From positions 275,549 to 339,548 of the forward strand of contig JAJTYH010000003.1 of assembly GCA_021463465.1 (NCBI GenBank): DNA of 64,000 nucleotides, written 5' to 3'. This stretch comes from a bacterium (lineage in GTDB: Bacteria > Patescibacteriota > Dojkabacteria > SC72). The translations under genes and the position numbers were made by a program. Position 1 is the first letter of the stretch; each line of letters begins with the position of its first letter. Under the pieces are notes generated by a model. That model saw only the letters and a list, made by a program, of their open reading frames with translations. It was not told the DNA's origin and searched no databases. Below, piece after piece: positions 33,675-59,026 of the stretch.

Positions 33675-36600
33675 ATGATGTCGTGGAGAACAAAAAGAAG
33701 GTTAATGCGTCTATGGGTCGCACTGCAATCTACCTTATCAATGAATGGGTATAATCAACGCCGCAAATTTCCCCAGAATCGCTTAGGTATCCAGTCAAAT
33801 ATACGAGTTGTTGGTAAAACTTTAAAGTTTGGTACAGCTATAGTGCTTGCTATCTTGATTAGCACTTTTCTGTTTAGAATTGTTAGCGCCGAAATCCTTT
33901 TAACTAACGAACGTAATCGACTTGAGTTTAAATCAAAAAGTAACAGTTTCCTTTTTGATCAAATTCCTATTGTGGAAATAAAGGATACAAGATACGTATT
34001 AGGAAGTATTAAGAATGTACTAGGTGCAACTACTCAAAACATAAATGAAGGAACAAGCGTAAAACTTATTGATCCAATTGGAAATCAAGTAAGCGGTGCT
34101 ACTATCTTTAATGTTTTGGGAAATAAATATCAGGTCAAAGTACCTGAAAACGTAGATTTTGTCCCAGGTAAATATCGTCTTTTGATTGACTCTCAAGGTA
34201 GGCATGTTGAGAAGGACTTTACCTGGGGAGTTTTAGCCGTCAATACAAATAAAAGTGTTTTCACACTCGGAGAAAATGTGTTTTTGCAATTGGCCTCATT
34301 AGACGAAAAGGGTCATACACTTTGTAACTCCAATCTAAAATTAAAGATAACCTCTCCAAATGGTGGAGTTGAATACACTGAAGTTCGTAAGAGCGGCGAT
34401 TGTTTTGATGATAACGTTACACTTAAGGCAGATTATTATAGTAACTTCGAACCAACCCAGATAGGATCCTATGTTATTCAATTAACAAATTCAGACTTAG
34501 GCTATACTATTTCAGATTCATTTAGAGTGGAAAAGTCTGTACCATTTATTATTGAGCGGTTTGGTCCAACTCGTATCTTTCCTAAGTCAGATTACAAGAT
34601 GAAGATATTCGTAACAGCGAATACTGATTACGTTGGAAAGGTAGAGGAGCTGGTCCCGAGTTCTTTTAAGGTTAATCAAAAAACAATGGAAGGTCTAAAT
34701 GGTAAGTTGTTAACTTGGGATGTTAACCTTAAAAAAGGTGAATCTAAAAGCGTAGAGTATATTTTTGACGCTCCAGATATCTCACCCGAACTTTATGTAA
34801 TCGGTCCGTTGAGAATAGGGGAATTTTCTGAATATAGAACATGGAAAGTTGCTTCGGATATTGTCGCAACATTGACTGATACTTATTTGCAAACAGGTAC
34901 TTGGGTTGCACCAGATGGTGTGACAAGTGCAAGTGTTGAGGTTTGGGGAGGTGGCGGAGCTGGTGGTGGTGCAACAGGGAACCCAGCTGCGGGGGGAGGA
35001 GGTGCTGGTGGTACATACGCTAAAAAAGCTAACTTTTCGGTTACTGCTGGAAATTCGTATACAACAACAGTAGGAGCAGCTAAAACTGCAACAACGACTA
35101 GCAGCGCTTCTACAAATACTGGAAATGTATCTTGGTTTAGTTCGAATGATACTAATGGAGTAGTAGGTGAAGGTGGTCCTGGAGGCGCTCCAGTTTCAGC
35201 TAATAGTTCAAACGGAAACGGTGGTACTGGTAGTACAGCAAATAGCTTTGGTGATGGAGGGTCAGTTTTTGCAGGTGGAAATGCATCAAATGGTAACTTT
35301 ACATCGGGCACACCGGGAGGTGCTGGTGGAGGAGGAGCAGGGAGTAGTGGAGTTGGTGGTAATGCATCCGCAGGAACTGGAGGAACTGGTTCAAGCACTG
35401 GTGGTGGAAATGGAGCCAATGGTGTAGCTAATAGTACTGCCGGCGCGGCAGGTACAACTTACGGTGGAGGTGGGTCTGGTGGAAAGGCTAATAGTACGAC
35501 TGATAGGGCAGGTGGTACAGGTGCAGCGGGAGCAGTTGCTGTTACATATTCAGCAGATTTCCCAAAAGTGGAAGCTACATCTACTGGCCGTGACTCCACT
35601 GATGCGACAAGCCATACGATTACAATGCCATCTGGAATAAATGTTGGGGAACTACTTATTATCGTATTTTCAGTTGATGGCAATCCTACTGTAACAATTG
35701 GCTCTGGTAACTGGACTAAATTGGGTCAGGCAAGCAATGGTACTACAGTTACTCAAGCCATATTTTATAAAGTAGCTGAGGGTAGCGATACGGCAACTGT
35801 GTCTACATCCTCAACCCAAGAAGCCTCTCATATTGTGTATAGGATTAGTGGTGCTGGTGATACAATTAGCGGTACATCTGCAAATGGTAGTAGTACAAAC
35901 TCAAATCCTCCAAACCACAATCCTGGTACCACCAATAATTACTTATGGATTGCTACTCGAGGTGGTGATGCTCAGGTTGTAGCTTCAGTTCCACCAACGA
36001 ATTTCGCCAATTATAAAAGTATTGGAGCACAAAATTCGACAGGTGCATCATCAAATACCTCAACTAGAGTACATCAGGCATCGAGTTTAGACCCAGGTAC
36101 GTGGACAAGTACGACTGAACAGTGGGTAAGTTATACGATATCCGTTCCGCCTCCAGTAACCTTAAGCGGAGCAGTTTACACAGATGAAATAGGGACAAAT
36201 ATTGGAGCAAATAAAACCGTCGATATACGGATTAATGGTACAGGATCGTATACCGATGAAACAGACAATAGCGGAGCCTGGACTATAAATGTGCCATCAA
36301 TAGCATCAGGGGCTGTAATTACTGCATATCTTGATGACGAAACAGAAGAAGGTACCATCGTTATGGTCTCTGATGGTACATCAAAAAGTGATATCCATAT
36401 AGTACAAAATAGGGTTTTTGTTAGGCATGATACTGGATCTTCCATTACACCTGACAATCTATTTAGTGGAGATGATGGAGATGATGATGTTAAGTACTCT
36501 GTTTCAGCTTCTTCGAATGGCAATTTAACAGTCGACTCTGGATTTGAGTTACATGTTTGGCCTGGTGATACTTTTGATGCAAGTGGTGGTAGCATTACTC

Positions 36601-39600
36601 TTCAGGGTGGAGCAAATCTGCATGTTGACGATACTGCTTCGGTTTACTTAGACACGAGTACAAACACTATTGCTGGTGATGCACTGATTGATGGAAGTGC
36701 TACATTGCGAATCAATGCAAATACGGATATCAATGGAGGTGACATAACAACTAGTGGTACTAATGCTAATGTTACAACCACGTCAGGTTCGCCCACTGTT
36801 ACGATTTCAGGAACAGGGAGTATTGGTGGTGGAACGACTCCGTCTTTTACATTTCATAACTTGAATACATCCGGCACAGGTACGACAACCCTCTCAAATG
36901 CTGTTACGGCAAATAACGATGTTACAGTTGGGAGTGGTACAACGCTTAGAATTAATTCAAATTTGAATGTTAATGGTGGAGATTTAGTAAATACAACTAC
37001 CGGAATTATTGATTACACTTCTGGAACGCCAACAGTCACTCTAACTGGCGCAGGAACTCTTGGTGGTGGGTCTGGTGGAATATCTATTTACAATTTAACT
37101 ACGAATGGGAGTAGTAACAGTACAACGCTTGCAACAAATAATATTGTAATCTCAAATGCTTTAAACGTTGGTACTTCTCATACTTTTGCTATGAGCACAA
37201 ATTCTCTAACAATAGGTTCTACTTCGATAAGTGATTCTGGAGATATTACAATGGCGACTGGGAGTTCTACCTCTCAATCAGCTTCAGGTACAGTAACAAT
37301 TTTAGGGTCTAGTAATGCCGCTGATTGGGCTGGTCCTGGGATATTCACCGCATACAACCTTACAATTGGTAACGGTAGTAATACATTATCTGTGGACAAT
37401 GAAACTGCTGATTTATCAATTGATGTTAATAATGATTTTAATATAACGGCAAATGCCACATTTAGTGCATCATCAAGTTCTTCTTTTACAGTTGGAAATA
37501 GTTATAGTAACTCAGGTACATTTACCGCAAATAGTGGTTTAGTAACGATGGACGCAGGAGATAGTGGGAACACACTCTCAGGATCTATGACCGGCAGTAG
37601 TACTTTCTATAATCTCAGGTTTAATAATAGTGCTGGATCCTGGACGTTTTCAAACAATGCAGATGTAGGTAATGACTTTACAATTACCGATGCAACGGCA
37701 GTAAATGCCCCTTCATCTTTAAGTGTTGCCAGAAATTTTACTGGTAGTAGTGCATTCACCCCGGGCAGTGGAACGGTAACACTTAGTGGCGCAGGTGGTA
37801 CCACACAAACATTGTCGGGCAATACGACTTTTTATAATCTAACTGCTAACGCCAGTTCCTCAAGAATAATTCAATTTACAGCAAGCTCAACAAACACGAT
37901 TAACAATAACTTAACACTAACAGGAACAAATTGTGATGCACTTATGCTTTTAAGGTCTACATCTAAGGGTACTGTTTGGAACATTGATGATAACACTGGT
38001 GGGACAACAACTGTAAGTAATGTTGATGTTCAAGACTCAACTGCAACAGACCAAGCAGTGACTGCGACATCGTCAAATAATTCTGGAAATAATGGCAATT
38101 GGACAATTGCGGCTTCGGCTTGTGAAGGGGGGAGCACCTCAATCACTCCTGTTTCGTATGGATTTCAGAGGAAAACTTTCTTTGATGATACAAATGATGT
38201 TTATTGGATGCTTTACCATGATGGTGATGAGATTGAGGTCAGATACTCAAGTGATACAGGAACAACATGGAATCTTCCTTCAACTTCAAGTAGTGCACAT
38301 CTTGCATATGATACAAGTGACTTTTCAGTATGGAATAAAACAATTAGCTCTACAGAGTATATATTTTTAGCACTAAAAGACGGCTTTGATATAAAAGTAT
38401 TGGTAGGTACTCTTTCCGCCTCAAATGTCACGTGGGATAATGATATCGATACCGTATTTGACGGTACTAGTAGTGGTGATACATTTTCATATCCGTACGT
38501 ATCGTTAGACTCTTCAAACTATGTTTGGGTGGGCGCAAGGTATTATGATGGGACCAATTACGTTTATCGTACATCTGATAGCAACGCTATCGGTAGTACC
38601 GACTTGTCATCGGTAGGTTGGAATCCATTCAAGCAGGTTATCAATAATCAAACAAATTCTAATGTCTATGGGAATATTGTTCCGCTTGCTTCTCAAGCTA
38701 TGTATTTAACAGTTGCAGTTGGAACCGCACTTCGTGGGTGTATTTGGGATGACAGTGCAAATGATTGGGTCGATTCAAATGATGTTAGTTGTACTACAGA
38801 ATCTGAGGAGTACTACTCAACACTAAATAATGGACTTATTTCATATTGGAGGATGGATGAGACCAGCTGGAATGGGACTAGTAATGAAGTTGTTGATTCA
38901 TCTGGTAATGGATTACATGGAGTTAGAGTAGGTGATGCTACGACAGAAAATAGTGGATTTTTAAGGTCAGGAACATTTGATGGATCTGGTGACTATATTG
39001 ACGCAGGCTCGCCAGCATCTCTTGATGATTTACCTAACAGTGATTTTACAGTCTCATTTTGGCATAAGTATAGTGAGACAGGTTCAGCAAATTTCCCAGT
39101 TTTTGTCGGTAAACGTAATTACTTGGGAAGTTATGGGTGGAATATAAGCACAGAAAAAACAAATAAGTATGTTAAATTAAACGTTTTGTATCCGGGTGGT
39201 ACTGATGCTCAATTTACAACCGATGACGATGCTTTTGCCGATGGTGTATGGTCACAGGTTACAGTCACATGGGATGCTTCAACGAAAACAGGTGAAATCT
39301 TTATCAATGGAATACAACCAAGTATGTATAACGAGGTTTCAGGCAGCGGGACCTACACCTCAGATGCATCTGAAATACTAAGGGTAGGACATGATAATGT
39401 GGGATCCCCATATAAAGGGAATTTAGATGAATTCAGAATATATGATAGGGTTTTGAGTACAAGCGAAATTTCGCAACTATATCAATATTATCCAGGCCCA
39501 ATTAATATTGATAATTCTTCTGACTTTGGTTCAATGCCCGGAGCGGGGAGGCAGATAATCAGGGCTGGTGATGGTGATATATACGCTTTTGTAAATGATG

Positions 39601-42600
39601 GTGGGAATTGTGAGATGTGGAAATCCACTAATAGTTTTACATGGACGCAGCAACAGCCAGGAACAACAATTACATGCAGTAACAGTAATGCAATCTCTAC
39701 TTCAATTGACGGAAATGCAGATATACATGTAGCCTATTTTGATGGTACTTCTTCATTAAAGTATCGACTTTATGATACTGCGACAGATAACTGGGACGGT
39801 GGTGTTGGGGAAGAGAATATCGTTACGGGTGACACTTATAGTTCTGTAGTAGTGTCAATTGACAGTAATAATATCCCTCATATTGCAGTTAGAACTACAA
39901 CAGGGGCCATAATCGGATACAACAATAGAATCGGTGGTACATGGAATGGTTCTTTAACTACGGTTGAGTCTACTTCAGTCACAGATTATTTAGATTTAAC
40001 TATAAATGAAAATAACTATCCTGCAATCTCATATATTACGAGCACATCGCTTGTTGCAAAAGAAGGGAATGCAAACGATGCTTCGTCATTTAACAGCTCA
40101 GGGACTATCGATTCAACTGTGAATACAACAGCTGGTCAAGCTGGCATTTCAATTGCGGTAGACAGTGCAAATGGCGATGAATGGGTAGCGTATATTGACT
40201 CGGGTGGGTCAGTAGCTCTCGCAAAACATAGCGGAGGAACATGGGGATCGGGATGGAGCACAGTTACAACTAAATCAGATATAGGCTCAGAACCGAGCAT
40301 AGCTCTTGCGTGGTCAAACGGGGTATATGTGTTCTATCAGGATGACAGCACTGATCAGAAAATTGTGTACGATTTCTACAATAGTAGTGGGAGTAGTCCT
40401 GCCTGGGTGGGGGAAAAAGTCCTTCTAACCCCAAGTAGTGGAGTTGATTATAAAGATGTAAAGGTGAGGTGGTCTTATTTAAATAACCCTTCTTATTCAA
40501 ACTATTCTTTTGAGTATTTAATTAGTGATAATACGGACTTATATTTCGGACAACTTTCTCTCCCAGATTGGTTAACTAACTGGAGTAAAAGGGTCCCGAT
40601 TGTTATCTCCAACTCAAACATTGATGCTGATTTGACTGCTTTTCCATTAAACTTGACCGTAACTTCAACTTCAGGGACCGCTGACGATGATATGACCCTA
40701 CTTTTTGATTCGCTTGGTGCAAATAGCAAAAAGATTGCAATTACAAAATCTGATGGTACTACAGAGTTATACGCTGAAGTACAACGCTGGGACACTACTA
40801 ATGAAATTGGACAACTGTGGGTTTCAAAAGAAGATTTCGTGCTTTCTGGCTCAACGGATACCACCTTGTACTTATATTATGATAGTAATCACGCTGATAA
40901 TACAAACTATGTTGGGGATACAGGTTCCACAATCGCCGGTAAGGTGTGGGAACCTGGATATAAAGTTGTGGCGCATTTGGATGAAGCAGATGATACATCG
41001 AGGGTCGATGCATCAGGAAATGGGAATACAATGTCAGAAAGTGCTTCTGATACTGTAACCCAATATACCTCTGGGACACGAATTGGTGCGGATTTTGAGA
41101 GGGGTGATACAGAGTTCCTTGAAGTATCTGATAACTCAAGTCTTGAAATGAGTAATTTTACCTTTACTGCCTGGCTTAATGTTGAAAGCACTCAGAGCTC
41201 AGGAGGTGCGTATCAGGCTATTTTCACAAGGGGTGATGGAGGTAATTGGGCATACGGTTGGGCGACTGAATCGGATTCTATCGGAACGTTAATAGATGCT
41301 GATGGGTTTGCGGGGGGAGGAGCTTTGCCAGTGAGCGCTTCTTCTACATTTAATACAGGTGAATGGAATCTATTTCATGTCACTTATGATGGTTCGAATA
41401 TACGGCTGTATAAAAACGGTGTAGAGCTAACTTCTGGAGATTATCCATACGCTACAACTATTTCTATAAATCAAAATAGTACATCAAGTCTAAGATTAGG
41501 AAATTGGCAATCGCAATCTGGTTACTTTGATGGGATTATGGATGAAGTTATGCTTAATAGTGGAGCTAAATCTTCCGCATGGCTAAAGACAGATTATCAC
41601 TCAATGACTGACAATCTTGCGAACTGGGGGACTTCTGAAAGTGTTGCTTTTAGCACCTCCTCCCAAGATACAATTGATACTATCCCAGCTAATATAGATG
41701 ATAATTTTTCAGCAACAGTCGATTCTAGTAATAATGTCCACATTGCATATGTAGACGATGAAAGTACCGATCAAATTTCACATCGAAAGTGGACTAACTC
41801 TACTCAGACATGGGGTAGTGCAACACTTGTTCCAAGTGGAGCAAGTAATACTCATACGAATATAAGTATTGCAATAAACACATCGGCGGCAGATCTGAAT
41901 GATTTGTATGTTTCCTGGATTGATTCTTCAAATAACCACATATATTACCGACAGTATGATAGTTCGGCCACAAGTTGGTTAACTGTTCAGGATTGGAAAA
42001 CAACCGGTACTAATGTCTATCCGACTCTAAACTTCAGTGGTAGTGGAAGAGTATTTGCCCTTTGGAATCAAGGTACTTCTTCTCCTACTACTATTGATTG
42101 GGGTTCAATTTTAGCCCCGTCAGGAGGGAGTGCACCAACAGTTACAAGTGTAAGCTTAAATGGAGGGTCAACGATAACATTAACTGAAGGAACAACAACA
42201 AATATTTCAGTTGTCGGGACAGTTACTGACTTAGATGGTCATGCAAATATATCTACTGCAACAGCAAAGATTTATAGATCAGGTGTATCAGGTGCTCAAT
42301 CATGTTCAAATAGTGATAATAATTGTTACACAGTTGCTAGCTGTTCACTTAGCTCATGTGCTGGAAATACTTGTACAGCAACATGCACTGCACCATTAGC
42401 ATTTCATGCTGATGCAACTGATACTGGGAGTACATATGCATCAGAGTACTGGAGAGGTTGGATTGAAGCTACAGATGATGATTCAAATACAGGTTCTGGG
42501 TTTAGTAGCGTAGGGTCACCTGACCTTGCAAGTACTGCTGCTATGGATATAAGCTCTTCACTTGCTTTTGGCACGCTTTTAGCTGGTGATGACACCGGTG

Positions 42601-42932
42601 CATCTCCTCAGAATACTACTGTCACAAATACTGGAAATACAACACTTGATTTTGAAGTTTCAGGAGATGATTTATGTACTAACTATCCGACCTGTAGTGG
42701 GTCGCAAATAGGTGTTGGGTATCAGGAGTATAAGATTACAACTTTTACATACGGTGCAGGGACTGGATTAACTACTTCCCCAGTGACAGTTGATTTGAAT
42801 CTGAACAAATCTACTGCCGTCCCGTCTAATTCAACATCCTCCTTTTACTGGGGCATAGGAATTCCATCTCCAAAAGAGACTGGGGCGTATACAGGTGCTA
42901 ATACAGTAACGGCGTTAAATGGTGGTTCTTAG
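33675..42932 (+). CDS. Giant (3085 aa) multi-domain cell-surface protein with an N-terminal anchor, a Gly-rich module, beta-helix-like repeats, a BNR motif, 2 LamG-like domains, a DUF2341-like segment and a Cys-patterned C-terminal module
   Basis: A single uninterrupted ORF with an N-terminal TM or signal anchor. The Gly-rich block VEVWGGGGAGGG...GGGGAGGTY is at about 34900-35560. Degenerate repeats of about 65 aa (…TVT(I/L)(S/T)G.G.(I/L)GGG…FYNLT…) run from about 36780 to 38000. An Asp-box SSDTGTTW is near 38250. LamG-like jelly rolls lie at about 38835-39495 and 40960-41600. The DUF2341-like segment WLTNWSKRVPIVISNS...LYLYYDS is at 40560-40910. Confidence 0.8.
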   Translation: MMSWRTKRRLMRLWVALQSTLSMNGYNQRRKFPQNRLGIQSNIRVVGKTLKFGTAIVLAILISTFLFRIVSAEILLTNERNRLEFKSKSNSFLFDQIPIVEIKDTRYVLGSIKNVLGATTQNINEGTSVKLIDPIGNQVSGATIFNVLGNKYQVKVPENVDFVPGKYRLLIDSQGRHVEKDFTWGVLAVNTNKSVFTLGENVFLQLASLDEKGHTLCNSNLKLKITSPNGGVEYTEVRKSGDCFDDNVTLKADYYSNFEPTQIGSYVIQLTNSDLGYTISDSFRVEKSVPFIIERFGPTRIFPKSDYKMKIFVTANTDYVGKVEELVPSSFKVNQKTMEGLNGKLLTWDVNLKKGESKSVEYIFDAPDISPELYVIGPLRIGEFSEYRTWKVASDIVATLTDTYLQTGTWVAPDGVTSASVEVWGGGGAGGGATGNPAAGGGGAGGTYAKKANFSVTAGNSYTTTVGAAKTATTTSSASTNTGNVSWFSSNDTNGVVGEGGPGGAPVSANSSNGNGGTGSTANSFGDGGSVFAGGNASNGNFTSGTPGGAGGGGAGSSGVGGNASAGTGGTGSSTGGGNGANGVANSTAGAAGTTYGGGGSGGKANSTTDRAGGTGAAGAVAVTYSADFPKVEATSTGRDSTDATSHTITMPSGINVGELLIIVFSVDGNPTVTIGSGNWTKLGQASNGTTVTQAIFYKVAEGSDTATVSTSSTQEASHIVYRISGAGDTISGTSANGSSTNSNPPNHNPGTTNNYLWIATRGGDAQVVASVPPTNFANYKSIGAQNSTGASSNTSTRVHQASSLDPGTWTSTTEQWVSYTISVPPPVTLSGAVYTDEIGTNIGANKTVDIRINGTGSYTDETDNSGAWTINVPSIASGAVITAYLDDETEEGTIVMVSDGTSKSDIHIVQNRVFVRHDTGSSITPDNLFSGDDGDDDVKYSVSASSNGNLTVDSGFELHVWPGDTFDASGGSITLQGGANLHVDDTASVYLDTSTNTIAGDALIDGSATLRINANTDINGGDITTSGTNANVTTTSGSPTVTISGTGSIGGGTTPSFTFHNLNTSGTGTTTLSNAVTANNDVTVGSGTTLRINSNLNVNGGDLVNTTTGIIDYTSGTPTVTLTGAGTLGGGSGGISIYNLTTNGSSNSTTLATNNIVISNALNVGTSHTFAMSTNSLTIGSTSISDSGDITMATGSSTSQSASGTVTILGSSNAADWAGPGIFTAYNLTIGNGSNTLSVDNETADLSIDVNNDFNITANATFSASSSSSFTVGNSYSNSGTFTANSGLVTMDAGDSGNTLSGSMTGSSTFYNLRFNNSAGSWTFSNNADVGNDFTITDATAVNAPSSLSVARNFTGSSAFTPGSGTVTLSGAGGTTQTLSGNTTFYNLTANASSSRIIQFTASSTNTINNNLTLTGTNCDALMLLRSTSKGTVWNIDDNTGGTTTVSNVDVQDSTATDQAVTATSSNNSGNNGNWTIAASACEGGSTSITPVSYGFQRKTFFDDTNDVYWMLYHDGDEIEVRYSSDTGTTWNLPSTSSSAHLAYDTSDFSVWNKTISSTEYIFLALKDGFDIKVLVGTLSASNVTWDNDIDTVFDGTSSGDTFSYPYVSLDSSNYVWVGARYYDGTNYVYRTSDSNAIGSTDLSSVGWNPFKQVINNQTNSNVYGNIVPLASQAMYLTVAVGTALRGCIWDDSANDWVDSNDVSCTTESEEYYSTLNNGLISYWRMDETSWNGTSNEVVDSSGNGLHGVRVGDATTENSGFLRSGTFDGSGDYIDAGSPASLDDLPNSDFTVSFWHKYSETGSANFPVFVGKRNYLGSYGWNISTEKTNKYVKLNVLYPGGTDAQFTTDDDAFADGVWSQVTVTWDASTKTGEIFINGIQPSMYNEVSGSGTYTSDASEILRVGHDNVGSPYKGNLDEFRIYDRVLSTSEISQLYQYYPGPINIDNSSDFGSMPGAGRQIIRAGDGDIYAFVNDGGNCEMWKSTNSFTWTQQQPGTTITCSNSNAISTSIDGNADIHVAYFDGTSSLKYRLYDTATDNWDGGVGEENIVTGDTYSSVVVSIDSNNIPHIAVRTTTGAIIGYNNRIGGTWNGSLTTVESTSVTDYLDLTINENNYPAISYITSTSLVAKEGNANDASSFNSSGTIDSTVNTTAGQAGISIAVDSANGDEWVAYIDSGGSVALAKHSGGTWGSGWSTVTTKSDIGSEPSIALAWSNGVYVFYQDDSTDQKIVYDFYNSSGSSPAWVGEKVLLTPSSGVDYKDVKVRWSYLNNPSYSNYSFEYLISDNTDLYFGQLSLPDWLTNWSKRVPIVISNSNIDADLTAFPLNLTVTSTSGTADDDMTLLFDSLGANSKKIAITKSDGTTELYAEVQRWDTTNEIGQLWVSKEDFVLSGSTDTTLYLYYDSNHADNTNYVGDTGSTIAGKVWEPGYKVVAHLDEADDTSRVDASGNGNTMSESASDTVTQYTSGTRIGADFERGDTEFLEVSDNSSLEMSNFTFTAWLNVESTQSSGGAYQAIFTRGDGGNWAYGWATESDSIGTLIDADGFAGGGALPVSASSTFNTGEWNLFHVTYDGSNIRLYKNGVELTSGDYPYATTISINQNSTSSLRLGNWQSQSGYFDGIMDEVMLNSGAKSSAWLKTDYHSMTDNLANWGTSESVAFSTSSQDTIDTIPANIDDNFSATVDSSNNVHIAYVDDESTDQISHRKWTNSTQTWGSATLVPSGASNTHTNISIAINTSAADLNDLYVSWIDSSNNHIYYRQYDSSATSWLTVQDWKTTGTNVYPTLNFSGSGRVFALWNQGTSSPTTIDWGSILAPSGGSAPTVTSVSLNGGSTITLTEGTTTNISVVGTVTDLDGHANISTATAKIYRSGVSGAQSCSNSDNNCYTVASCSLSSCAGNTCTATCTAPLAFHADATDTGSTYASEYWRGWIEATDDDSNTGSGFSSVGSPDLASTAAMDISSSLAFGTLLAGDDTGASPQNTTVTNTGNTTLDFEVSGDDLCTNYPTCSGSQIGVGYQEYKITTFTYGAGTGLTTSPVTVDLNLNKSTAVPSNSTSSFYWGIGIPSPKETGAYTGANTVTALNGGS

Positions 42933-52102: not shown

Positions 52103-52267
52103 AAACGGGACTCTCACCGAGCAGTGAATTTTCAATAAGGCGAAATAAACAAGCCATTAAGGGATTCTACCTTCGAACCTAGGGTTATCCAAATTCATCA
52201 AAATTTAGCCTCTTTTCATCCACTAGGCTATTTATTTGAAATAACTGAATTTCAAATCAAAATAGCT

Positions 52268-52351
52268 CAATCCCTACAAAGGTTTTGAAGCATAACAAAC
52301 GAGTCTTGTGGGAACATATGAAGTATGGCGGGACATACGAGTCTGGAACCC
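52268..52351. repeat. Direct repeat copy A, carrying a degenerate copy of the tRNA-Asp 3' end plus downstream flank. Similarity extends upstream to about 52213.
   Basis: caatccctacaaaggttttgaagcataacaaacgagtcttgtgggaacatatgaagtatggcgg is near-identical to 56589-56652. The next 20 nt are a decayed match to the tRNA T-arm. Confidence 0.65.
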
Positions 52352-52434
52352 AAAATGAGAATGAGACAAATGAGACACATAAAAAAGAATGATTGAAAAA
52401 TCTCAATTGATCAAAATAGGAATAGTTGTTTACT

Positions 52435-53289
52435 CTATAATTTTGACAATTCAAACCCTGTTAACCCATTTATGACACTAATTTTCTCATTAATATTATT
52501 TTTAAACGGTATTTCTTGAGCTGAAAGTGTCTCATACGTTGAGGTATATTCATCAAACATAGCCCAGTCACGATGACCTCTTACGGCTTCATTATTAAGA
52601 TATGCAATTACCAATTGAGAATTAAACTCATTATATTCTTTTAGATCCTTAACTAATAAAGACAAATTATTAGCTAGACTTTCGTCACTAATGCTTGCAA
52701 TAGCCTTGTACAAGTTCTCAATTTCATTTTGACAATCTAAACAATCCTTAGGTTCCACATATATTTTGTCATCATCAAATAATCCTTCGCGATGATAATC
52801 CAGTTTAGTATTATATTCGTAGATTTCATCACGAACTTTGTTGCAGAACATATCAAAATTAATCTTACTCAAGCAGTTGTTCTCTTCAAGCTCTTTTACT
52901 TTCGCCGCTCTTTCCTTTGTGAGAATTCCTCTTGGATTCTTAGGATCGCTACCAGGGTTACCAAATCCCCAATCCTGATATCCTAATGATATTGAATAAT
53001 AATTTGAGTCAATAATAAAACTTTCAAAGCTAGTTTTAAAAGCTAATTTTGAGTGGTAGTCTGAATCAATAAGTTCATAATACTTCCTTGTAACCGTAGA
53101 CTTAAGATCATCAAACTTATCTCTATAAATATATCCCACTATCACTATTAATAGAACAAGTAGGGAAAGAACAAAAAATAAGGATAAGCCTTTCTTACTA
53201 GTTCTATACTTGTTCTTGTACCCACACTTTGGACAAATTTTAATATTCTTTTTTAAATCACTTCCGCATTGTGAACAATATTTGGTCAT
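52435..53289 (-). CDS. Zinc-ribbon membrane protein: N-terminal C4 ribbon, single TM and an extracytoplasmic domain
   Basis: MTKYCSQCGSDLKKNIKICPKCGYKN, then a TM helix LSLFFVLSLLVLLIVIVGYIY, then a domain of about 230 aa with the Cys pairs C..C. Confidence 0.6.
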   Translation of the reverse strand: MTKYCSQCGSDLKKNIKICPKCGYKNKYRTSKKGLSLFFVLSLLVLLIVIVGYIYRDKFDDLKSTVTRKYYELIDSDYHSKLAFKTSFESFIIDSNYYSISLGYQDWGFGNPGSDPKNPRGILTKERAAKVKELEENNCLSKINFDMFCNKVRDEIYEYNTKLDYHREGLFDDDKIYVEPKDCLDCQNEIENLYKAIASISDESLANNLSLLVKDLKEYNEFNSQLVIAYLNNEAVRGHRDWAMFDEYTSTYETLSAQEIPFKNNINEKISVINGLTGFELSKL

Positions 53290-54407
53290 CTAATAATAGA
53301 TAAATTTAAACCATATTTACCATTAATAATATTTGCATATGTTCTGATTTGATCATTTAAAATCGATTCCTTATCAGTAAGCTTAGACAAATTATTGATA
53401 ACTTGTTTTTTTTGATCACGAATTCTTTGTATATTTCCGTTTAAATCGTTAATTACACATGTCTTGCTAAATGATGGGCAATTTGATTTCAGCATATCTA
53501 TGTTAAATGAACCAAATTCCTCTTTTTTGTAGTAGGATAATAATTTTGTTACAGAACCATCCTTAACGATCCTAAGTTCGTTTTCATTCCCTCCAATTGC
53601 ATTATCCCATTCAAGTATCTCTTTGTGTTTTTCAATAATCTTTGAGCTGGTTTCATTATAATCCTTTAAAATCATAGTGTATTCAAGCAATACTTGCGAT
53701 AGATCCGGATCTTTAATTTCGGAAGAAAGTTTTATTAATTCTTCAATCTTCTCGTCACAATTTCGACATGTTGTATAGATATTATGGTTGATTGCCCAAT
53801 TTTGTGAGTTTTCGCATGTACTTATAAAATGTGGAAAGTTTGTACTTCCACAAAATCGGGATTCCGTAGATTTCGTATCAATCTTAATGTAGATTTTTCT
53901 GTCCAAATCAATAATTTCATTTCTCAGTTGATCACAATAATTGTCGACATTGAGTAAGCTGTAACAATTTCCCTCATCAATTTTTTTCAATACAGATAGC
54001 CGGTTATTTATTAGTTCCGTAGAGGTTAGAGGTGTATCACCGTCTAATTTATAATTTACAGTATCAAAATCTTTAGCATTTTCTACATTTATATCGTAAC
54101 CGAAAGAAGATTCGAACCAATACAAATTCATTAGGTATTTCTCATGCGAAATTTTGTAATTTCTCTTTGCATCAAAATCCACATCGTTTATTTGAGCAAT
54201 TATGTCTTTATAATTTGTAAAAAAATAGATAATTTTGTCTTTTAAAATGAATCCTCCGCTAAGGAGTAAGACAATAATTATTAAAGAAATGTAAAGGCCA
54301 ATGTTATTCTTAATGGTTTTTATTTTACTGTTTTTATGTCCGCATTTAGGACAAATGCTAATATTTCTTTTTAGTGGAGTTGCACATTGTGAGCAATATC
54401 TGTTCAT
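53286..54407 (-). CDS. Zinc-ribbon membrane protein, a paralog of the 52435-53289 product
   Basis: MNRYCSQCATPLKRNISICPKCGHKN, then a TM helix, then an ectodomain with CRNCDEKIEELIK, analogous to CLDCQNEIENLYK in the paralog. Confidence 0.6.
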   Translation of the reverse strand: MNRYCSQCATPLKRNISICPKCGHKNSKIKTIKNNIGLYISLIIIVLLLSGGFILKDKIIYFFTNYKDIIAQINDVDFDAKRNYKISHEKYLMNLYWFESSFGYDINVENAKDFDTVNYKLDGDTPLTSTELINNRLSVLKKIDEGNCYSLLNVDNYCDQLRNEIIDLDRKIYIKIDTKSTESRFCGSTNFPHFISTCENSQNWAINHNIYTTCRNCDEKIEELIKLSSEIKDPDLSQVLLEYTMILKDYNETSSKIIEKHKEILEWDNAIGGNENELRIVKDGSVTKLLSYYKKEEFGSFNIDMLKSNCPSFSKTCVINDLNGNIQRIRDQKKQVINNLSKLTDKESILNDQIRTYANIINGKYGLNLSIIR

Positions 54408-55255
54408 AGTTGTTTTCCACAGAATTCACAAAATTTAGATCCCGATTCACTTAATTCTCCACATTCTTTACACGGTCGGATATTGTATTTGAAATCAAAT
54501 TTATTTATTTCCCAGATTCTTTTGAGAATATAAGGATGGCTTCCGAGAGTTTCTCCAAGCTTTCCCATTATTTTTGACTCGACTCCTTGAAGTTGTTCTG
54601 ACAATTCATCAATATCTATGTCTTTCGCACAATTTGGGCCAGCAGATATTTTAAGAAGTGTTCTAATTAATGTGCTTTTGTCCTTTGTGCAAATGTAGGC
54701 ACATCTGTCAGATGTATATTCTGTTCTTCTGCCCCAAAATCCAAAAAGAAGCTCTGCAAATGTAAAGTAATTTCCGAGAGGAGAGATTATAGAAAGAAAT
54801 ACAGTATGACGATATTTAATATGACCCAATTCATGTGCTATTACTACCCGTATTTCTTCTGTTTCCAGATTTTCAATTATTGCAGAGTTTATGACAATTG
54901 CGTAACTTCTACCAAATCCCATTGTATAAGCATTCAAGTTAGGATTTTGAGTTATATATACATTTGGCACTCTCTTAATTTCCAAAATCTCGCAACATTC
55001 TTTTACTAATTTGTAAATATGTGGTAGCTGTGTATTCGATATTTGCAAGCTATTTCCTAGCTGTTGCATTTGAAGAAGTCTTATATAGAAAAGCCCAAAT
55101 AACAGTGAAAAGATTAATATTAGTAGATTAACTTTCAAAAGTAAGAATACGAGTAGTAAAGATATTATTAATACAACTAAGAAGGATAACGTTTCTCCCT
55201 TATATCTCAAAATTGATTTTGTCCGATTAGAAAAACGGGACATATTTATTTCCAT
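54404..55255 (-). CDS. M48-family (HtpX-like) zinc metalloprotease with a C-terminal zinc ribbon
   Basis: HEXXH in IAHELGHIKYRH, two N-terminal TM helices and the C-terminal CKECGELSESGSKFCEFCGKQL. Confidence 0.8.
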   Translation of the reverse strand: MEINMSRFSNRTKSILRYKGETLSFLVVLIISLLLVFLLLKVNLLILIFSLLFGLFYIRLLQMQQLGNSLQISNTQLPHIYKLVKECCEILEIKRVPNVYITQNPNLNAYTMGFGRSYAIVINSAIIENLETEEIRVVIAHELGHIKYRHTVFLSIISPLGNYFTFAELLFGFWGRRTEYTSDRCAYICTKDKSTLIRTLLKISAGPNCAKDIDIDELSEQLQGVESKIMGKLGETLGSHPYILKRIWEINKFDFKYNIRPCKECGELSESGSKFCEFCGKQL

Positions 55256-55379
55256 TTAGATAATAATCAATGATACGATATAAAGGTTTATTCATCAAAT
55301 TATTTTCATTTTGGGATAATAGAAAAACTATGAAAAAGATAAGGTTTCAGAAAATAAAGGATTGTGATAGATTGTAATT

Positions 55380-56318
55380 ATGAAGACAACAAAATTCTTT
55401 AGTAAGGAAATCAAACTAGGCAGAGTATTTAAAGGATTAGGTGTCTCATTAGCTTGCTTCATAATGTTAGGATTTATCTCATTCTTTGGTATAGATTCAA
55501 CTTTAAATCTGTTCGACAGATATTCCGCTACGACACTTACTCAAAAATCAGAAGTTCTTGGCGTAAATGACGAGGCTAAGTTAGTCGGAACTTATGGAGA
55601 TGTATATCCAAACGATCCTAAAACAGAATTTGTTTGGGATTGGGAGAGATCTCGAGAAGATTATTATCTATTAGAAAAGTTTATAGAAAATCCTGAATAC
55701 TTTTTACCAAGATGGAAGGGAATTGTTTCTCAAACTTGGTTGTTAAAGAATCAAAAAGAACTTAAATTAGTTTGCCCTGATCTTACAAAGGAATTAGTGA
55801 TTGCTGGAAATTATTATAACTGCACTCTTTCGTATAATGGAAAGGTTTTAAAGAAGGATGTAAGGATGACTGGAAGCTGTAAAGATTTCGATAAGCAGAA
55901 TGATTGTAGTGCTGAAGTAGCTTTCACAGTTTATTCTAATCGATGGGGAGATCATAATTCAGATGAATACATTGTAGCTAATACTTGGGCTTCTGGCTCT
56001 AAGGATTGGGCAACAGTATTCAAACTTAATAACGGAAAGTCCACGAAGCTAATGTTTACAAATGGCTATAAATCTACGGACAAACTCTACATATCGTCGT
56101 ATTCGTTTGATTTGTATGGGAAATCTTCAACTTGGGAGAATGAACAGAACTTTAATGATGAAATTGTATTTATGACAATGTTCCATGAGCCAAGTATGGG
56201 AAGTGATAATAATGTAGAAAATATTTTTGAATATTGGATGATTAAAGGAAATAATCTCGAATTTCAAAAGAAAGTAGTTGATTTATATCGGGAAGGTGAA
56301 GAACCGCATTGGTTGTAG
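55380..56318 (+). CDS. Hypothetical secreted or membrane-anchored protein
   Basis: N-terminal signal anchor GVSLACFIMLGFISFFGI and multiple Cys. No recognised motif. Confidence 0.45.
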   Translation: MKTTKFFSKEIKLGRVFKGLGVSLACFIMLGFISFFGIDSTLNLFDRYSATTLTQKSEVLGVNDEAKLVGTYGDVYPNDPKTEFVWDWERSREDYYLLEKFIENPEYFLPRWKGIVSQTWLLKNQKELKLVCPDLTKELVIAGNYYNCTLSYNGKVLKKDVRMTGSCKDFDKQNDCSAEVAFTVYSNRWGDHNSDEYIVANTWASGSKDWATVFKLNNGKSTKLMFTNGYKSTDKLYISSYSFDLYGKSSTWENEQNFNDEIVFMTMFHEPSMGSDNNVENIFEYWMIKGNNLEFQKKVVDLYREGEEPHWL

Positions 56319-56588
56319 TATCACATATAACTCTCTGGAGAAGTCGTTGTATTGAGAAGAGATTTCCGTGTCTTAGATACGTGTATAAACTTGGTCAAAT
56401 TTCTCTAATATTGCTGAACTATAAAACTTTCTGGGCTCTCAGCTTATAATTTTACATAGGTCGAATTAATCAAGCCACAAAAGGCTTTATACATCGAACC
56501 AAGAGGTGTCGAAATCTAGGCTGAAAACGACTAATTTCATCCACCAGGCTATAATTTCTGAAACTTCGATATTTGCTCAAAACTAACA

Positions 56589-56672
56589 CAATCCCCATAA
56601 AGGTTTTGAAGCATAGCAAACGAGTCTTGTGGGAACATATGAAGTATGGCGGAATGGACGGGGCTCGAACCC
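56589..56672. repeat. Direct repeat copy B, overlapping the authentic 3' end of tRNA-Asp and its downstream flank. Similarity extends upstream to about 56535.
   Basis: Matches 52268-52351. It includes the encoded CCA and acceptor/T-arm 3' half of tRNA-Asp. Confidence 0.65.
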
Positions 56673-56723
56673 GCAACCTTCGCAGTGACAGTGCGATGCT
56701 CTAACCAGTTGAGCTACCACTCC
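56647..56723 (-). tRNA. tRNA-Asp (anticodon GTC), CCA encoded
   Basis: The reverse complement GGAGTGGTAGCTCAACTGGTTAGAGCATCGCACTGTCACTGCGAAGGTTGCGGGTTCGAGCCCCGTCCATTCCGCCA folds as a canonical cloverleaf with anticodon loop CTGTCAC. Confidence 0.9.
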
Positions 56724-57538: not shown

Positions 57539-57858
57539 CCTAAATACTTATTTATTGTTTCAATGTAGTTTTGCTTAGGTTGTAAACCAATCATTTGGTC
57601 CACTAATTTCCCATCCTTAAAAAACATAATCGTAGGAATACTCATGACTTGATACTGCATTGATGTATTAGGGTTTTGATCTACATTAAGTTTGTAAACC
57701 TTAATTTTCCCTTCTAATTCTTGAGCTATTTCATCAATCAACGGACTTAGCACAACGCATGGAGTACACCATGCTGCCCAGAAATCAACAAGCACAAGTC
57801 CTTTGCTCTCAAGGATTTCTTTTTTAAAATCGTTATCTGTTACTGCTAAATCTGACAT
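57535..57858 (-). CDS. trxA: Thioredoxin
   Basis: 107-aa thioredoxin fold with the active site WAAWCTPCV (CTPC rather than the canonical CGPC). Confidence 0.85.
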   Translation of the reverse strand: MSDLAVTDNDFKKEILESKGLVLVDFWAAWCTPCVVLSPLIDEIAQELEGKIKVYKLNVDQNPNTSMQYQVMSIPTIMFFKDGKLVDQMIGLQPKQNYIETINKYLG

Positions 57859-57925
57859 AATATGTGGTAAAATCTTACACTTATACTATATTTTAAACGT
57901 TAAACATCCTTTTACGCAAGTGTGT

Positions 57926-59026
57926 ATGGAAATTTGCAAGTTAAATGCTGACAATTTAGATGAAATAGTCGCTAAAGCTGTAAATGTACTAAAAAACGGT
58001 GGTTTTATTATCTATCCTACTGAAACTTGCTACGGTATAGGTGCTGATGCTACTAATCAAGAGGCGGTCAATAAACTCTACGATTATAAAGGTTTTAGAG
58101 GTCAGAAACCTTTTTCAATGGCCGTAAAAGATAGAAAAATGGCTGAAAAGTATGTTGAGATTAATGACATTGCTGATAATCTCTATAAAAATTATCTACC
58201 TGGGCCAGTGACTGTAGTTTCAAACAGTAAAGGTGGAGTTGCAGTGGGAGTGGAAACTCCTTGGAAAACTATCGGAATTAGAATTCCTGACCATGTTATA
58301 CCTATTGCAATTGTAACAGCATACGGTAAGCCAATTACAGCAACCTCTGCCAACGTCTCATACAAACCGATTGCATATTCAATTGAGAGTTTGTTAGCCC
58401 ATACTCCTAAAAAATCTCAGAAATATCTTAATTTAATAATTGATGCGGGAGATTTGCCTAAAAATGTGCCCTCTACCGTCTTGGACACCACTTTAAACAG
58501 TCTGACTGTTCTCAGACAGGGAAAGGATGAGTTTAAAAACGCAATCAAAAAGTCCAACCTAGTTGTAACCAAAGTTACCAATTCTACTGATGAAACAATA
58601 CAGATGGGCAAAGAGGTAGCCAATAAGTTTGTGCCAATACACGATAACGGTCCCCTTGTGTTTGCATTAAGCGGTGAGCTTGGGGCAGGGAAGACTCAGT
58701 TTACAAAAGGGATAGGGGAGTATTTAATGGTTGAAGATATAGTAAATTCGCCCACGTATACGATTATAAATGAATACAAGGGAAGTACTGTAGAGTTAGC
58801 CTTTATCCATATGGATACATGGAGGATAGCAAATCACGGTGAGTTTATGCGGTCAGGTTTGCAACAGTACCTAGCCACAAGTGAGATTGTTGTTGTGGAG
58901 TGGGCAGATAAGTATTACAAAGAGCTAGAGGAGTTGGTAAGCGAATTTGGAGGGAAAATTGTGAAGGTAGACTTCAAATACTTAGATCAAAACACAAGGG
59001 AGATTTCAGTCTATGAAAACAGGTGA
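57926..59026 (+). CDS. Fusion of L-threonylcarbamoyladenylate synthase (TsaC/YrdC domain) and TsaE (P-loop ATPase of the t6A pathway)
   Basis: The N-terminal YrdC fold IIYPTETCYGIGADATNQEAV...STVLDTTLNSLTVLRQG is followed by C-terminal TsaE with LVFALSGELGAGKTQFTKGI and SPTYTIINEY. The supplied ORF begins at 57803, but the Met at 57926 avoids overlapping trxA. Confidence 0.7.
   Translation: MEICKLNADNLDEIVAKAVNVLKNGGFIIYPTETCYGIGADATNQEAVNKLYDYKGFRGQKPFSMAVKDRKMAEKYVEINDIADNLYKNYLPGPVTVVSNSKGGVAVGVETPWKTIGIRIPDHVIPIAIVTAYGKPITATSANVSYKPIAYSIESLLAHTPKKSQKYLNLIIDAGDLPKNVPSTVLDTTLNSLTVLRQGKDEFKNAIKKSNLVVTKVTNSTDETIQMGKEVANKFVPIHDNGPLVFALSGELGAGKTQFTKGIGEYLMVEDIVNSPTYTIINEYKGSTVELAFIHMDTWRIANHGEFMRSGLQQYLATSEIVVVEWADKYYKELEELVSEFGGKIVKVDFKYLDQNTREISVYENR

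Follow-up and report, generated by a model that had tools for sequence, protein, structure and literature searches.

The 64,000-nt stretch of Dojkabacteria DNA analysed here, which we call the window and whose positions are used for all coordinates, carries a three-gene operon on its minus strand (52435-55255). This operon encodes an M48 metalloprotease that ends in a zinc ribbon, and two membrane proteins that begin with one. The three genes are carried by a small integrative islet at tRNA-Asp that is not autonomous, and a protease of this type is found next to ribbon-bearing membrane proteins in other Patescibacteria as well. The explanation that we favour, tentatively and with a probability of about 0.45, is that of a mobile membrane module in which the protease and its surface partners would pair at the cytoplasmic face of the membrane, either as a split receptor-protease resembling BlaR1 or as a protease with its client.

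In order of transcription, the operon comprises the genes of a 283-aa M48 gluzincin protease (54404-55255), of a 373-aa long paralog (53286-54407), and of a 284-aa short paralog (52435-53289), and both junctions between them are 4-nt ATGA stop/start overlaps. An earlier interpretation of the same DNA, made without database searches and referred to here as the sequence-only reading, had described three consecutive minus-strand genes with overlapping stops and starts forming a tightly coupled operon, in which the 284-aa and 373-aa proteins share a near-identical C4 ribbon, one transmembrane helix and a Cys-bearing ectodomain, and the third is an M48 protease with a HELGH motif and a C-terminal C4 ribbon. 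All of this was borne out: the open reading frames (ORFs) lie at these positions, the genes form one coupled unit, and the paralogy, the motifs and the protease profile were all found. As the homologs of the protease all begin with MS(K/R), its start is probably at 55243 (279 aa) and not at 55255; an exact look-up of the 283-aa sequence had no hit, probably owing to a different start codon in the database. A C4 ribbon-like motif is present in five of the 58 non-overlapping ORFs of the window, and three of these five are the adjacent genes of the operon. Compared with a 94-99% identical relative (L001), the ratio of nonsynonymous to synonymous substitution rates (dN/dS) is 0.01 for the protease, 0.32 for the 373-aa protein, and 0.13 for the 284-aa protein, which indicates that all three are real genes under selection. 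A scan for promoters and terminators gave signals at background level, including in the 124-nt divergent intergenic region (55256-55379) that separates the operon from ORF312, so that operon boundaries were not obtained from it. The operon opposes an otherwise almost uniform plus-strand orientation, and is the only minus-strand operon in a long plus-strand run. Over the window as a whole (1-64000), almost all long ORFs lie on the plus strand until about 60 kb and the GC skew is persistently positive, the islet operon being the main exception.

The protease is a member of the M48 gluzincins by profile, by its HExxH motif and glutamate, and by fold. It matches Peptidase_M48 (PF01435) with E=1.8e-23 and 83.8 bits, against a cutoff of 20.3, and displays two N-terminal transmembrane helices, the HExxH motif (HELGH, 54821-54835), a hydrophobic hairpin, the third glutamate, and an HPxxxxR motif. 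Residues H141, E142, H145, E179 (the third zinc ligand), H240, and P241, and likewise the HP...R motif, are invariant in 28 relatives. The chain ends in a CX2CX10CX2C ribbon, CKECGELSESGSKFCEFC (54419-54472), with the same spacing as the ribbons of the partners. An AlphaFold2 model (predicted local distance difference test, pLDDT, 81.6; predicted template modelling score, pTM, 0.84) consists of two N-terminal helices, a mixed sheet, an active-site helix and a ribbon-like C-terminus. Its best folds in the PDB are ZMPSTE24/Ste24, BlaR1 from Staphylococcus aureus, the M48 structural-genomics entry 3C37, minigluzincins, BepA and the Vibrio HtpX domain, with match probabilities of 0.97-1.0 and modest E-values (2e-3 to 0.15).

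M48 gluzincins, which include HtpX, Ste24 and relatives of BlaR1, have a cytoplasm-facing active site and are not site-2 (M50) intramembrane proteases. The fold matches agree with this non-intramembrane class, since the active sites of the nearest folds face the cytoplasm or lie in a chamber, and scans of Pfam and NCBIfam returned no M50 match. The enzyme is catalytically intact by its motifs, and its catalytic domain and C-terminal ribbon are predicted to face the cytoplasm. It is not an HtpX ortholog, as its scores against the NCBIfam equivalogs range from 47 to 65 bits where 245-422 are required (the best one reaching 65 bits against a cutoff of 285). The match to the M56 family of BlaR1 and MecR1 is weak, with E=5e-7 and 29.6 bits for PF05569 against a cutoff of 31. 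The score for blaR1_generic is 27.9 against 400, the MecR1 equivalog cutoff is likewise missed by far, and no C-terminal penicillin-binding sensor domain is fused to the chain according to the Pfam and NCBIfam scans.

The two partners are paralogs (BLASTP, 29% identity over 266 aa, E=8e-24) with N-terminal ribbons CSQCGSDLKKNIKICPKC in the 284-aa protein (53224-53277) and CSQCATPLKRNISICPKC in the 373-aa protein (54342-54395), their first 26 residues being identical at 18 positions. Each CX2CX10CX2C ribbon is followed by a basic linker and then by one transmembrane helix (53134-53190 and 54243-54299, respectively). The segments flanking this helix have a net charge of +4 to +6 on the N-terminal side and of about 0 on the C-terminal side, from which the ribbon is predicted to be cytoplasmic and the remainder to lie outside. 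The cytoplasmic portion would thus amount to about 33 residues per partner, that is, the ribbon plus the basic linker. This location is predicted here by the positive-inside rule alone, and zinc binding is likewise a prediction. Both partners would therefore be type-II membrane proteins exposing a fast-evolving, disulfide-type helical domain. The ribbons match only PF13240, PF13248, and PF12773, with E-values of 7e-5 to 3e-3 and scores that do not reach the gathering threshold of a single short domain, and the order of N-terminal C4 ribbon, transmembrane helix and outside domain is the PF13240-type architecture of proteins such as Llmg_0526 and TcaA.

The ectodomains constitute a family of their own. 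They contain conserved cysteine pairs, C139/C149 and C183/C186 in the short paralog, and C148/C158 and C214/C217 in the long one, to which long forms add C186/C198; the conservation of these cysteines in the family is 83-100%. The 373-aa family also keeps a C-terminal INGxxGLNLS motif (alignment A3). A word-indexed homology search with the 373-aa query retrieved only a 94% identical copy, and the family surfaced through an exhaustive profile search, which identified about 17 ectodomain relatives among 1.84 billion cluster representatives, the other hits covering ribbon and transmembrane helix only. The AlphaFold2 model of the 373-aa protein, built with alignment A3, is all-helical (pLDDT 84.4, pTM 0.74) and has no significant structural match in the PDB or BFVD. 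Relatives of the partner profile among PDB sequences are limited to classic ribbons (RpoM, L32), and matches in PHROGs and NCBIfam cover the ribbon and the transmembrane region only. A match of the ectodomains to an ordinary enzymatic or metabolic domain, which would have spoken against the sequence-only reading, did not appear in the Pfam, PDB, BFVD or PDB-profile searches.

The ribbon is the most constrained part of the partners, as mean pairwise identity across alignment A3 is 59% in the ribbon, compared with 22% in the linker plus transmembrane helix and 12-24% in the ectodomain, and as all 21 residues at which the partners of the window differ from L001 lie outside it. Its four cysteines are 100% conserved in the same alignment. 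In another locus with a pair of paralogs, L013, the ribbon residues of the two are identical despite at least six synonymous differences, which points to selection and not to recent gene conversion. When likeness within loci is set against likeness between loci, the ribbons turn out to be nearly identical across the closest loci too.

The association of the protease with ribbon-bearing membrane proteins extends well beyond the window. Relatives of the protease with 50-65% identity come from Patescibacteria metagenomes and from metagenome-assembled genomes (MAGs) labelled Moranbacteria and Patescibacteria group. Wherever a locus of this clade could be evaluated (L002, L004, L008-10, L012, L013, L081, and L083), one or two genes for ribbon-transmembrane-ectodomain proteins come after the protease gene, often with a start/stop overlap, and L013 repeats the short and long paralog pair. 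For a count, 66 M48 loci were scored for ribbon ORFs within 3 kb. Such an ORF accompanies 14 of the 16 M48 genes that carry a ribbon themselves, whereas the M48 genes without a ribbon divide into one with a ribbon ORF and 49 with none. Altogether, 23 ribbon-motif ORFs lie within 3 kb and one lies farther off. One of the two exceptions is 264 bp from the end of its contig, and the other is a distant actinobacterial enzyme. These numbers overstate the independence of the loci, given that about 35 of the 49 ribbon-less loci are a single orthologous group, a chromosomal 363-aa M48 of Saccharibacteria, and that the 14 positive loci reduce to seven non-redundant ones (window/L001, L002, L004, L006, L008, L012, and L013). 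With the further positive loci L081 and L083, the total is about nine independent loci of Patescibacteria. The test of co-occurrence that the sequence-only reading had called for is therefore favourable, and the genes are conserved together.

Qualitatively, the result is robust, as the association persists in loci where the parts are rearranged. The M48 of L020 has no ribbon itself, and two ribbon-transmembrane proteins are encoded after it; in L084, L086, and L087, where the M48 also lacks a ribbon, the gene before it encodes a protein with a signal peptide, an ectodomain, three transmembrane helices and a C-terminal ribbon; and in P0099, a single chain joins a soluble-type M48, three ribbons and two transmembrane helices. 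In a distant clade (L006/L085, 37% identity), a 56-aa HTH_17 gene comes first, five consecutive genes for ribbon proteins come next, and a ribbon-bearing M48 comes last, and the five bodies in L006 are unrelated to each other: a soluble helical protein, a tail-anchored one, a two-transmembrane protein with a C-terminal ribbon, one with a pilin-like (type IV) ectodomain, and a multi-transmembrane protein. The ribbon is thus joined to unrelated bodies, in L012 as in L006. In P0086, a TIR domain is combined with four PF13240 ribbons and a TM2 domain; together with P0099, this indicates that ribbon-transmembrane units hold enzymatic domains of the cytoplasm at the membrane, a typical defence effector domain among them.

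The mobility of the segment, which the sequence-only reading had raised as a condition, is documented by an empty site. The islet (52295-56615, 4,321 bp) is absent from a near-identical strain, whose contig L069, located through the flanking GGDEF protein, contains a 184-aa gene, tRNA-Asp and the GGDEF gene without an insert, the 184-aa and GGDEF genes being separated by 375 bp. This contig is colinear with the window without a mismatch up to 52294 and again from 56599, so that an insert of exactly 4,321 bp is delimited. It matches both flanks solely along a 17-nt crossover core, AAAGGTTTTGAAGCATA, which lies at 52278-52294 and is identical to 56599-56615. The core belongs to a direct repeat of about 200 nt resembling attachment (att) sites, the two copies of which are 4321 nt apart and 80-86% identical. 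The left copy (52150-52352) is chromosomal up to 52294, downstream of tRNA-Asp, and islet sequence from 52295; the right copy (56471-56673) is islet-borne from 56471 to 56598 and chromosomal from 56599 onward, and overlaps the last 26 nt of the tRNA-Asp(GTC) gene (56647-56723, minus strand; ARAGORN and Rfam), the integration target. An islet-borne imitation of the tRNA 3' end, GGGTTCCAGACTCGTATGTCCCGCCA (52326-52351, minus strand), aligns with the real one, GGGTTCGAGCCCCGTCCATTCCGCCA. The GC content of the islet is 31.6%, compared with 37.8% in the rest of the window. It contains four genes, the fourth being the co-cargo ORF312 (55380-56318, plus strand), and no recombinase or integrase was detected among them with Pfam. 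Presence in one strain and absence from another, and repeats including the tRNA 3' end, are therefore features that the islet shares with tRNA-targeting elements, whereas it lacks an integrase of its own. The filled and empty sites document recent mobility of an element in a lineage of the Candidate Phyla Radiation (CPR).

Large recombinases appear in the same context elsewhere. A serine recombinase lies directly beside the module in L008/L009, L081, and L083, abutting tRNA-Gln in the latter, and a recombinase related to these occupies the tRNA-Asp site in L072. In sister strains, this site is occupied by other elements: L072 and L075 have one that includes a large serine recombinase and a 141-aa gene, and L079 has a prophage-like one with a terminase, restriction-modification (RM) genes, a serine recombinase and an ORF312 homolog. 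In L013, tRNA-Asp is about 3.4 kb from the M48 module. Neighbours of the type found in genetic conflicts include SduA_C (Shedu) in L002 and L008, and DUF4411 with M78 in L006. As a side observation, tRNA-Asp(GTC) emerges as an integration hot spot, empty in L069, occupied by the 4.3-kb islet in the window, and by other elements in L072, L075, and L079.

According to the explanation we favour, an M48 enzyme resembling HtpX and BlaR1 would be co-translated with two ribbon-transmembrane-ectodomain proteins, and the ribbon with its juxtamembrane segment would be what they share for docking or recognition. The partner would act outside the cell as a sensor that controls the protease, or else be its dedicated client. 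The gene order, which yields two transmembrane helices, protease and ribbon, followed by ribbon, transmembrane helix and ectodomain, reproduces the layout of BlaR1 (transmembrane helices, cytoplasmic protease, transmembrane helix, outside sensor), divided between two chains. As for its role, the module would act in conflict or exclusion, in defence, or in envelope interaction on behalf of a mobile element, and not in housekeeping or sigma-factor signalling. A conflict/exclusion or envelope role is the most likely because this is an accessory module that moves with serine-recombinase elements and, in two loci, lies near a Shedu-domain gene; exclusion, defence or envelope interaction is likewise favoured by the faster evolution of the ectodomain and by a context that is mobile, close to recombinases and in part that of a defence island. 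The anatomy of the operon, its predicted topology, its mobility, the conservation of the gene pair and the pattern of selection are documented by the analysis, whereas the physical interaction of protease and partner, the cleavage target and the biological role are inferred.

BlaR1 is a cytoplasm-facing metalloprotease coupled to an outside sensor (PMC9834060). Like BlaR1 and MecR1 (M56), the system described here has a membrane-anchored gluzincin on the cytoplasmic face, which would be coupled across the membrane to an outside sensing domain; the protease model has BlaR1 chains among its best fold matches (E 7e-3 to 5e-2, probability 0.99-1.0), and the parts follow one another along the operon as the domains do in BlaR1. 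However, the sensor-like part is here a separate polypeptide, present as two paralogs, zinc ribbons stand on both sides of the junction, and the ectodomain is an all-helical novel family and not one resembling penicillin-binding proteins or beta-lactamases. The enzyme, moreover, scores as M48 and not as M56, and no BlaI-type repressor accompanies it, as the ORF list and Pfam reveal no helix-turn-helix (HTH) gene of the BlaI/MecI kind in or beside the islet. HtpX (M48B) shares with the protease the two N-terminal transmembrane helices, HExxH, hairpin, third glutamate, HPxxxxR and the predicted cytoplasm-facing site. What sets the protease apart from HtpX, besides the equivalog scores given above, is its C-terminal ribbon, its location on a dispensable mobile islet, and the ribbon-bearing membrane proteins encoded before or after it.

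The closest parallel for the partners is found in Firmicutes. Llmg_0524 and Llmg_0526 from Lactococcus lactis, which also consist of CX2CX10CX2C followed by a transmembrane helix, were shown experimentally to bind zinc stably through this motif and to have a cytoplasmic N-terminus; their authors suggested that the zinc motif serves protein stability and perhaps the interaction with other proteins (PMC4628341). By analogy, these experiments would support the cytoplasmic zinc-module part of our picture. Together with TcaA from S. aureus, they have the same N-terminal spacing, a transmembrane helix and a long outside domain, and the lactococcal proteins are likewise two in one operon and linked to envelope-related phenotypes (PMC4628341). 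In contrast to our partners, they are chromosomal and not islet-borne, no protease has been reported in those operons, their ectodomains are unrelated, and no sequence relationship is detectable past the ribbon. A more distant parallel is offered by ImmA/ImmR (M78), where a metalloprotease beside the integrase of an integrative and conjugative element or prophage is paired with a small partner on which it acts. The protease beside a recombinase in L008, L081, and L083 recalls this arrangement, but ImmA is a soluble M78 protein and its partner is an HTH repressor, whereas here a membrane M48 is associated with surface partners devoid of a DNA-binding domain.

Several points weigh against the proposed pairing. 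Contact between the ribbons is purely conjectural, and the ribbon cannot be the sole coupling element, since the protease lacks it in L020 and L084-L087. The islet does not encode a substrate or an output such as a repressor or a sigma factor. No PADLOC hit was obtained for the partners or ORF312, with only weak hits (E >= 0.003) for the protease, and a scan with the protease alignment recovered no relatives among the viral contigs of IMG/VR, so that a role in defence or exclusion is argued from context only. Common ancestry can account in part for the conserved adjacency of genes carried as mobile cargo, and the loci are only about nine independent ones, all from one phylum. Finally, the PF13240 ribbon-transmembrane unit also anchors unrelated domains (TIR, in P0086), and may be a generic anchor rather than a docking element.

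Among the alternatives, an unlikely one is that the module primarily serves superinfection or surface exclusion, or anti-phage defence: the ectodomains would form a coat on the surface that keeps out an arriving phage or element, and the protease would only mature them or turn them over. Temperate phages of Gram-positive bacteria often keep superinfection exclusion (sie) genes beside the integrase at the end of the element, and the module is indeed on a mobile islet and, in L008, L081, and L083, beside integrase-type recombinases at element ends. Genes with a Shedu domain and RM genes among the neighbours point in the same direction, as does an ectodomain family that is tiny and lineage-restricted and whose rate of evolution, judged by dN/dS, is about 30 times that of the protease. 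However, a dN/dS of 0.32 corresponds to relaxed and not to positive selection, the PADLOC and IMG/VR searches were negative as described, and PHROG matches are limited to the ribbon and transmembrane region. This alternative overlaps with the split receptor-protease or protease-client explanation and does not exclude it.

It is more doubtful that the genes are not specifically coupled at all, the M48 being a generic quality-control protease of the HtpX type, the ribbon a generic device for topology or anchoring, and the genes mere hitchhikers among island cargo. HtpX-type matches were found, even though all of them are far below the NCBIfam equivalog cutoffs; PF13240 ribbon-transmembrane units occur on unrelated domains (TIR, DUF805, TM2); the protease ribbon is absent from some relatives; and the sample of independent loci is small. 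Against this, the ATGA translational coupling is kept in several loci, and the pairing persists through changes in gene order, ribbon position and partner type, and through fusion into a single chain. The 363-aa M48 of Saccharibacteria, which has the appearance of a housekeeping enzyme, has neither a ribbon nor ribbon-bearing neighbours in its approximately 35 loci. A pure housekeeping role of the HtpX kind is, furthermore, unlikely because the islet copy is dispensable, as the sister strain with the empty site demonstrates.

The sequence-only reading had instead pointed to a possible model in which the partners are anti-sigma-like sensors and regulated intramembrane proteolysis destroys them so that a transcription signal is released, and this we reject as very improbable: the single-pass, sensor-like architecture is present, ribbon-transmembrane-ectodomain proteins have been hypothesised to be membrane-tethered transcription factors (the YARHG paper, PMC3355149), and the distant locus L006 begins with the HTH_17 gene, but M48 is not an intramembrane protease (M50, rhomboid or presenilin-type), the ribbon is of the PF13240 type (rubredoxin knuckle) and not a zf-HC2 or RskA-type anti-sigma domain, a cytoplasmic part of some 33 residues is all that the partners offer, and no sigma, HTH or other DNA-binding gene lies in the islet or beside the module in L002, L004, L008, L012, L013, L081, and L083, all of which makes the analogy inexact. 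The remark in that reading that no partner sigma factor is visible agrees with the ORF list and Pfam, where no sigma gene was found in the islet.

Neither the M48 fold nor the ribbon-transmembrane-ectodomain architecture is new, the latter being known from YARHG proteins (PMC3355149), TcaA, and Llmg_0526. A literature search for a described system of M48 plus zinc ribbon returned nothing relevant. Four features are new with respect to the literature searched: an M48 and ribbon-bearing membrane proteins form a conserved pair, both sides of this pair have a ribbon, the helical ectodomains constitute a new family, and the module is carried by Patescibacteria elements that target tRNA genes and are associated with serine recombinases. 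These bacteria have tiny genomes with few recognised regulatory and defence systems, and their surface biology is barely known. The module is a concrete candidate for the way in which they, or their mobile elements, sense or block arrivals at the surface, and it would give a widespread, functionally unexplained architecture (TcaA and Llmg_0526-like proteins in Firmicutes) a first candidate partner enzyme. A bolder version, which we consider improbable, is that the paired ribbons form a non-covalent joint assembling a split receptor-protease from interchangeable surface sensors and one M48, as a surface-triggered switch of CPR elements. If so, the switch could sense contact with a phage or host and lead to exclusion, abortive responses or excision of the element, and loci with up to five ribbon-tagged proteins would be a plug-in repertoire for a single protease.

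The remaining islet gene, ORF312, encodes a 312-aa N-terminally anchored protein with no match in Pfam. Homologs lie divergently beside M48 in L002, L008, L013, and L081, and others occur without M48, beside serine recombinases or elsewhere (L077, L079). The family, with 40-56% identity, includes homologs labelled Dojkabacteria and others from further CPR lineages, and is found beside large serine recombinases, beside M48 modules, or alone. Membership of ORF312 in the module was considered and rejected, as the family is also found without the protease; the protein is probably outside it. A second ORF312 paralog is encoded in the same assembly (IT417_03375).

The att-like region 3' of tRNA-Asp exists in three diverged versions (window 52150-52260 and 56471-56580; L072 1140-1260), all of which keep the motifs AAGG..TT....TCGAACC.A.G.GT and TTTCATCCAC.AGG. 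The region matches no Rfam family at gathering score, and the motifs may be candidate recombinase binding sites or a small structured RNA. Beyond the tRNA gene, one plus-strand ORF (57803-59026) fuses TsaC/Sua5-YrdC with TsaE, and TsaD comes after it; the neighbourhood of tRNA-Asp, TsaC-TsaE and TsaD recurs in L079 and L080. In the distant clade, L006 2933-6861 equals L085 4912-8840, and a DUF4411 and M78 (ImmA/IrrE-like) pair and a cluster of four tRNAs adjoin it. A more distant M48 with a C-terminal ribbon is P0041. The MAGs of L015 and L020 are titled 'uncultured Gammaproteobacteria bacterium', although the genes they contain look patescibacterial, suggesting that the bins are mislabelled or combine a host with its epibiont. 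Elsewhere in the window, a giant plus-strand ORF of 3,085 aa (33675-42932) contains Laminin_G_3 (ConA-like lectin) domains typical of large CPR surface proteins, and the 563-aa and 468-aa (SH3-bearing) ORFs that come after it may belong with it.

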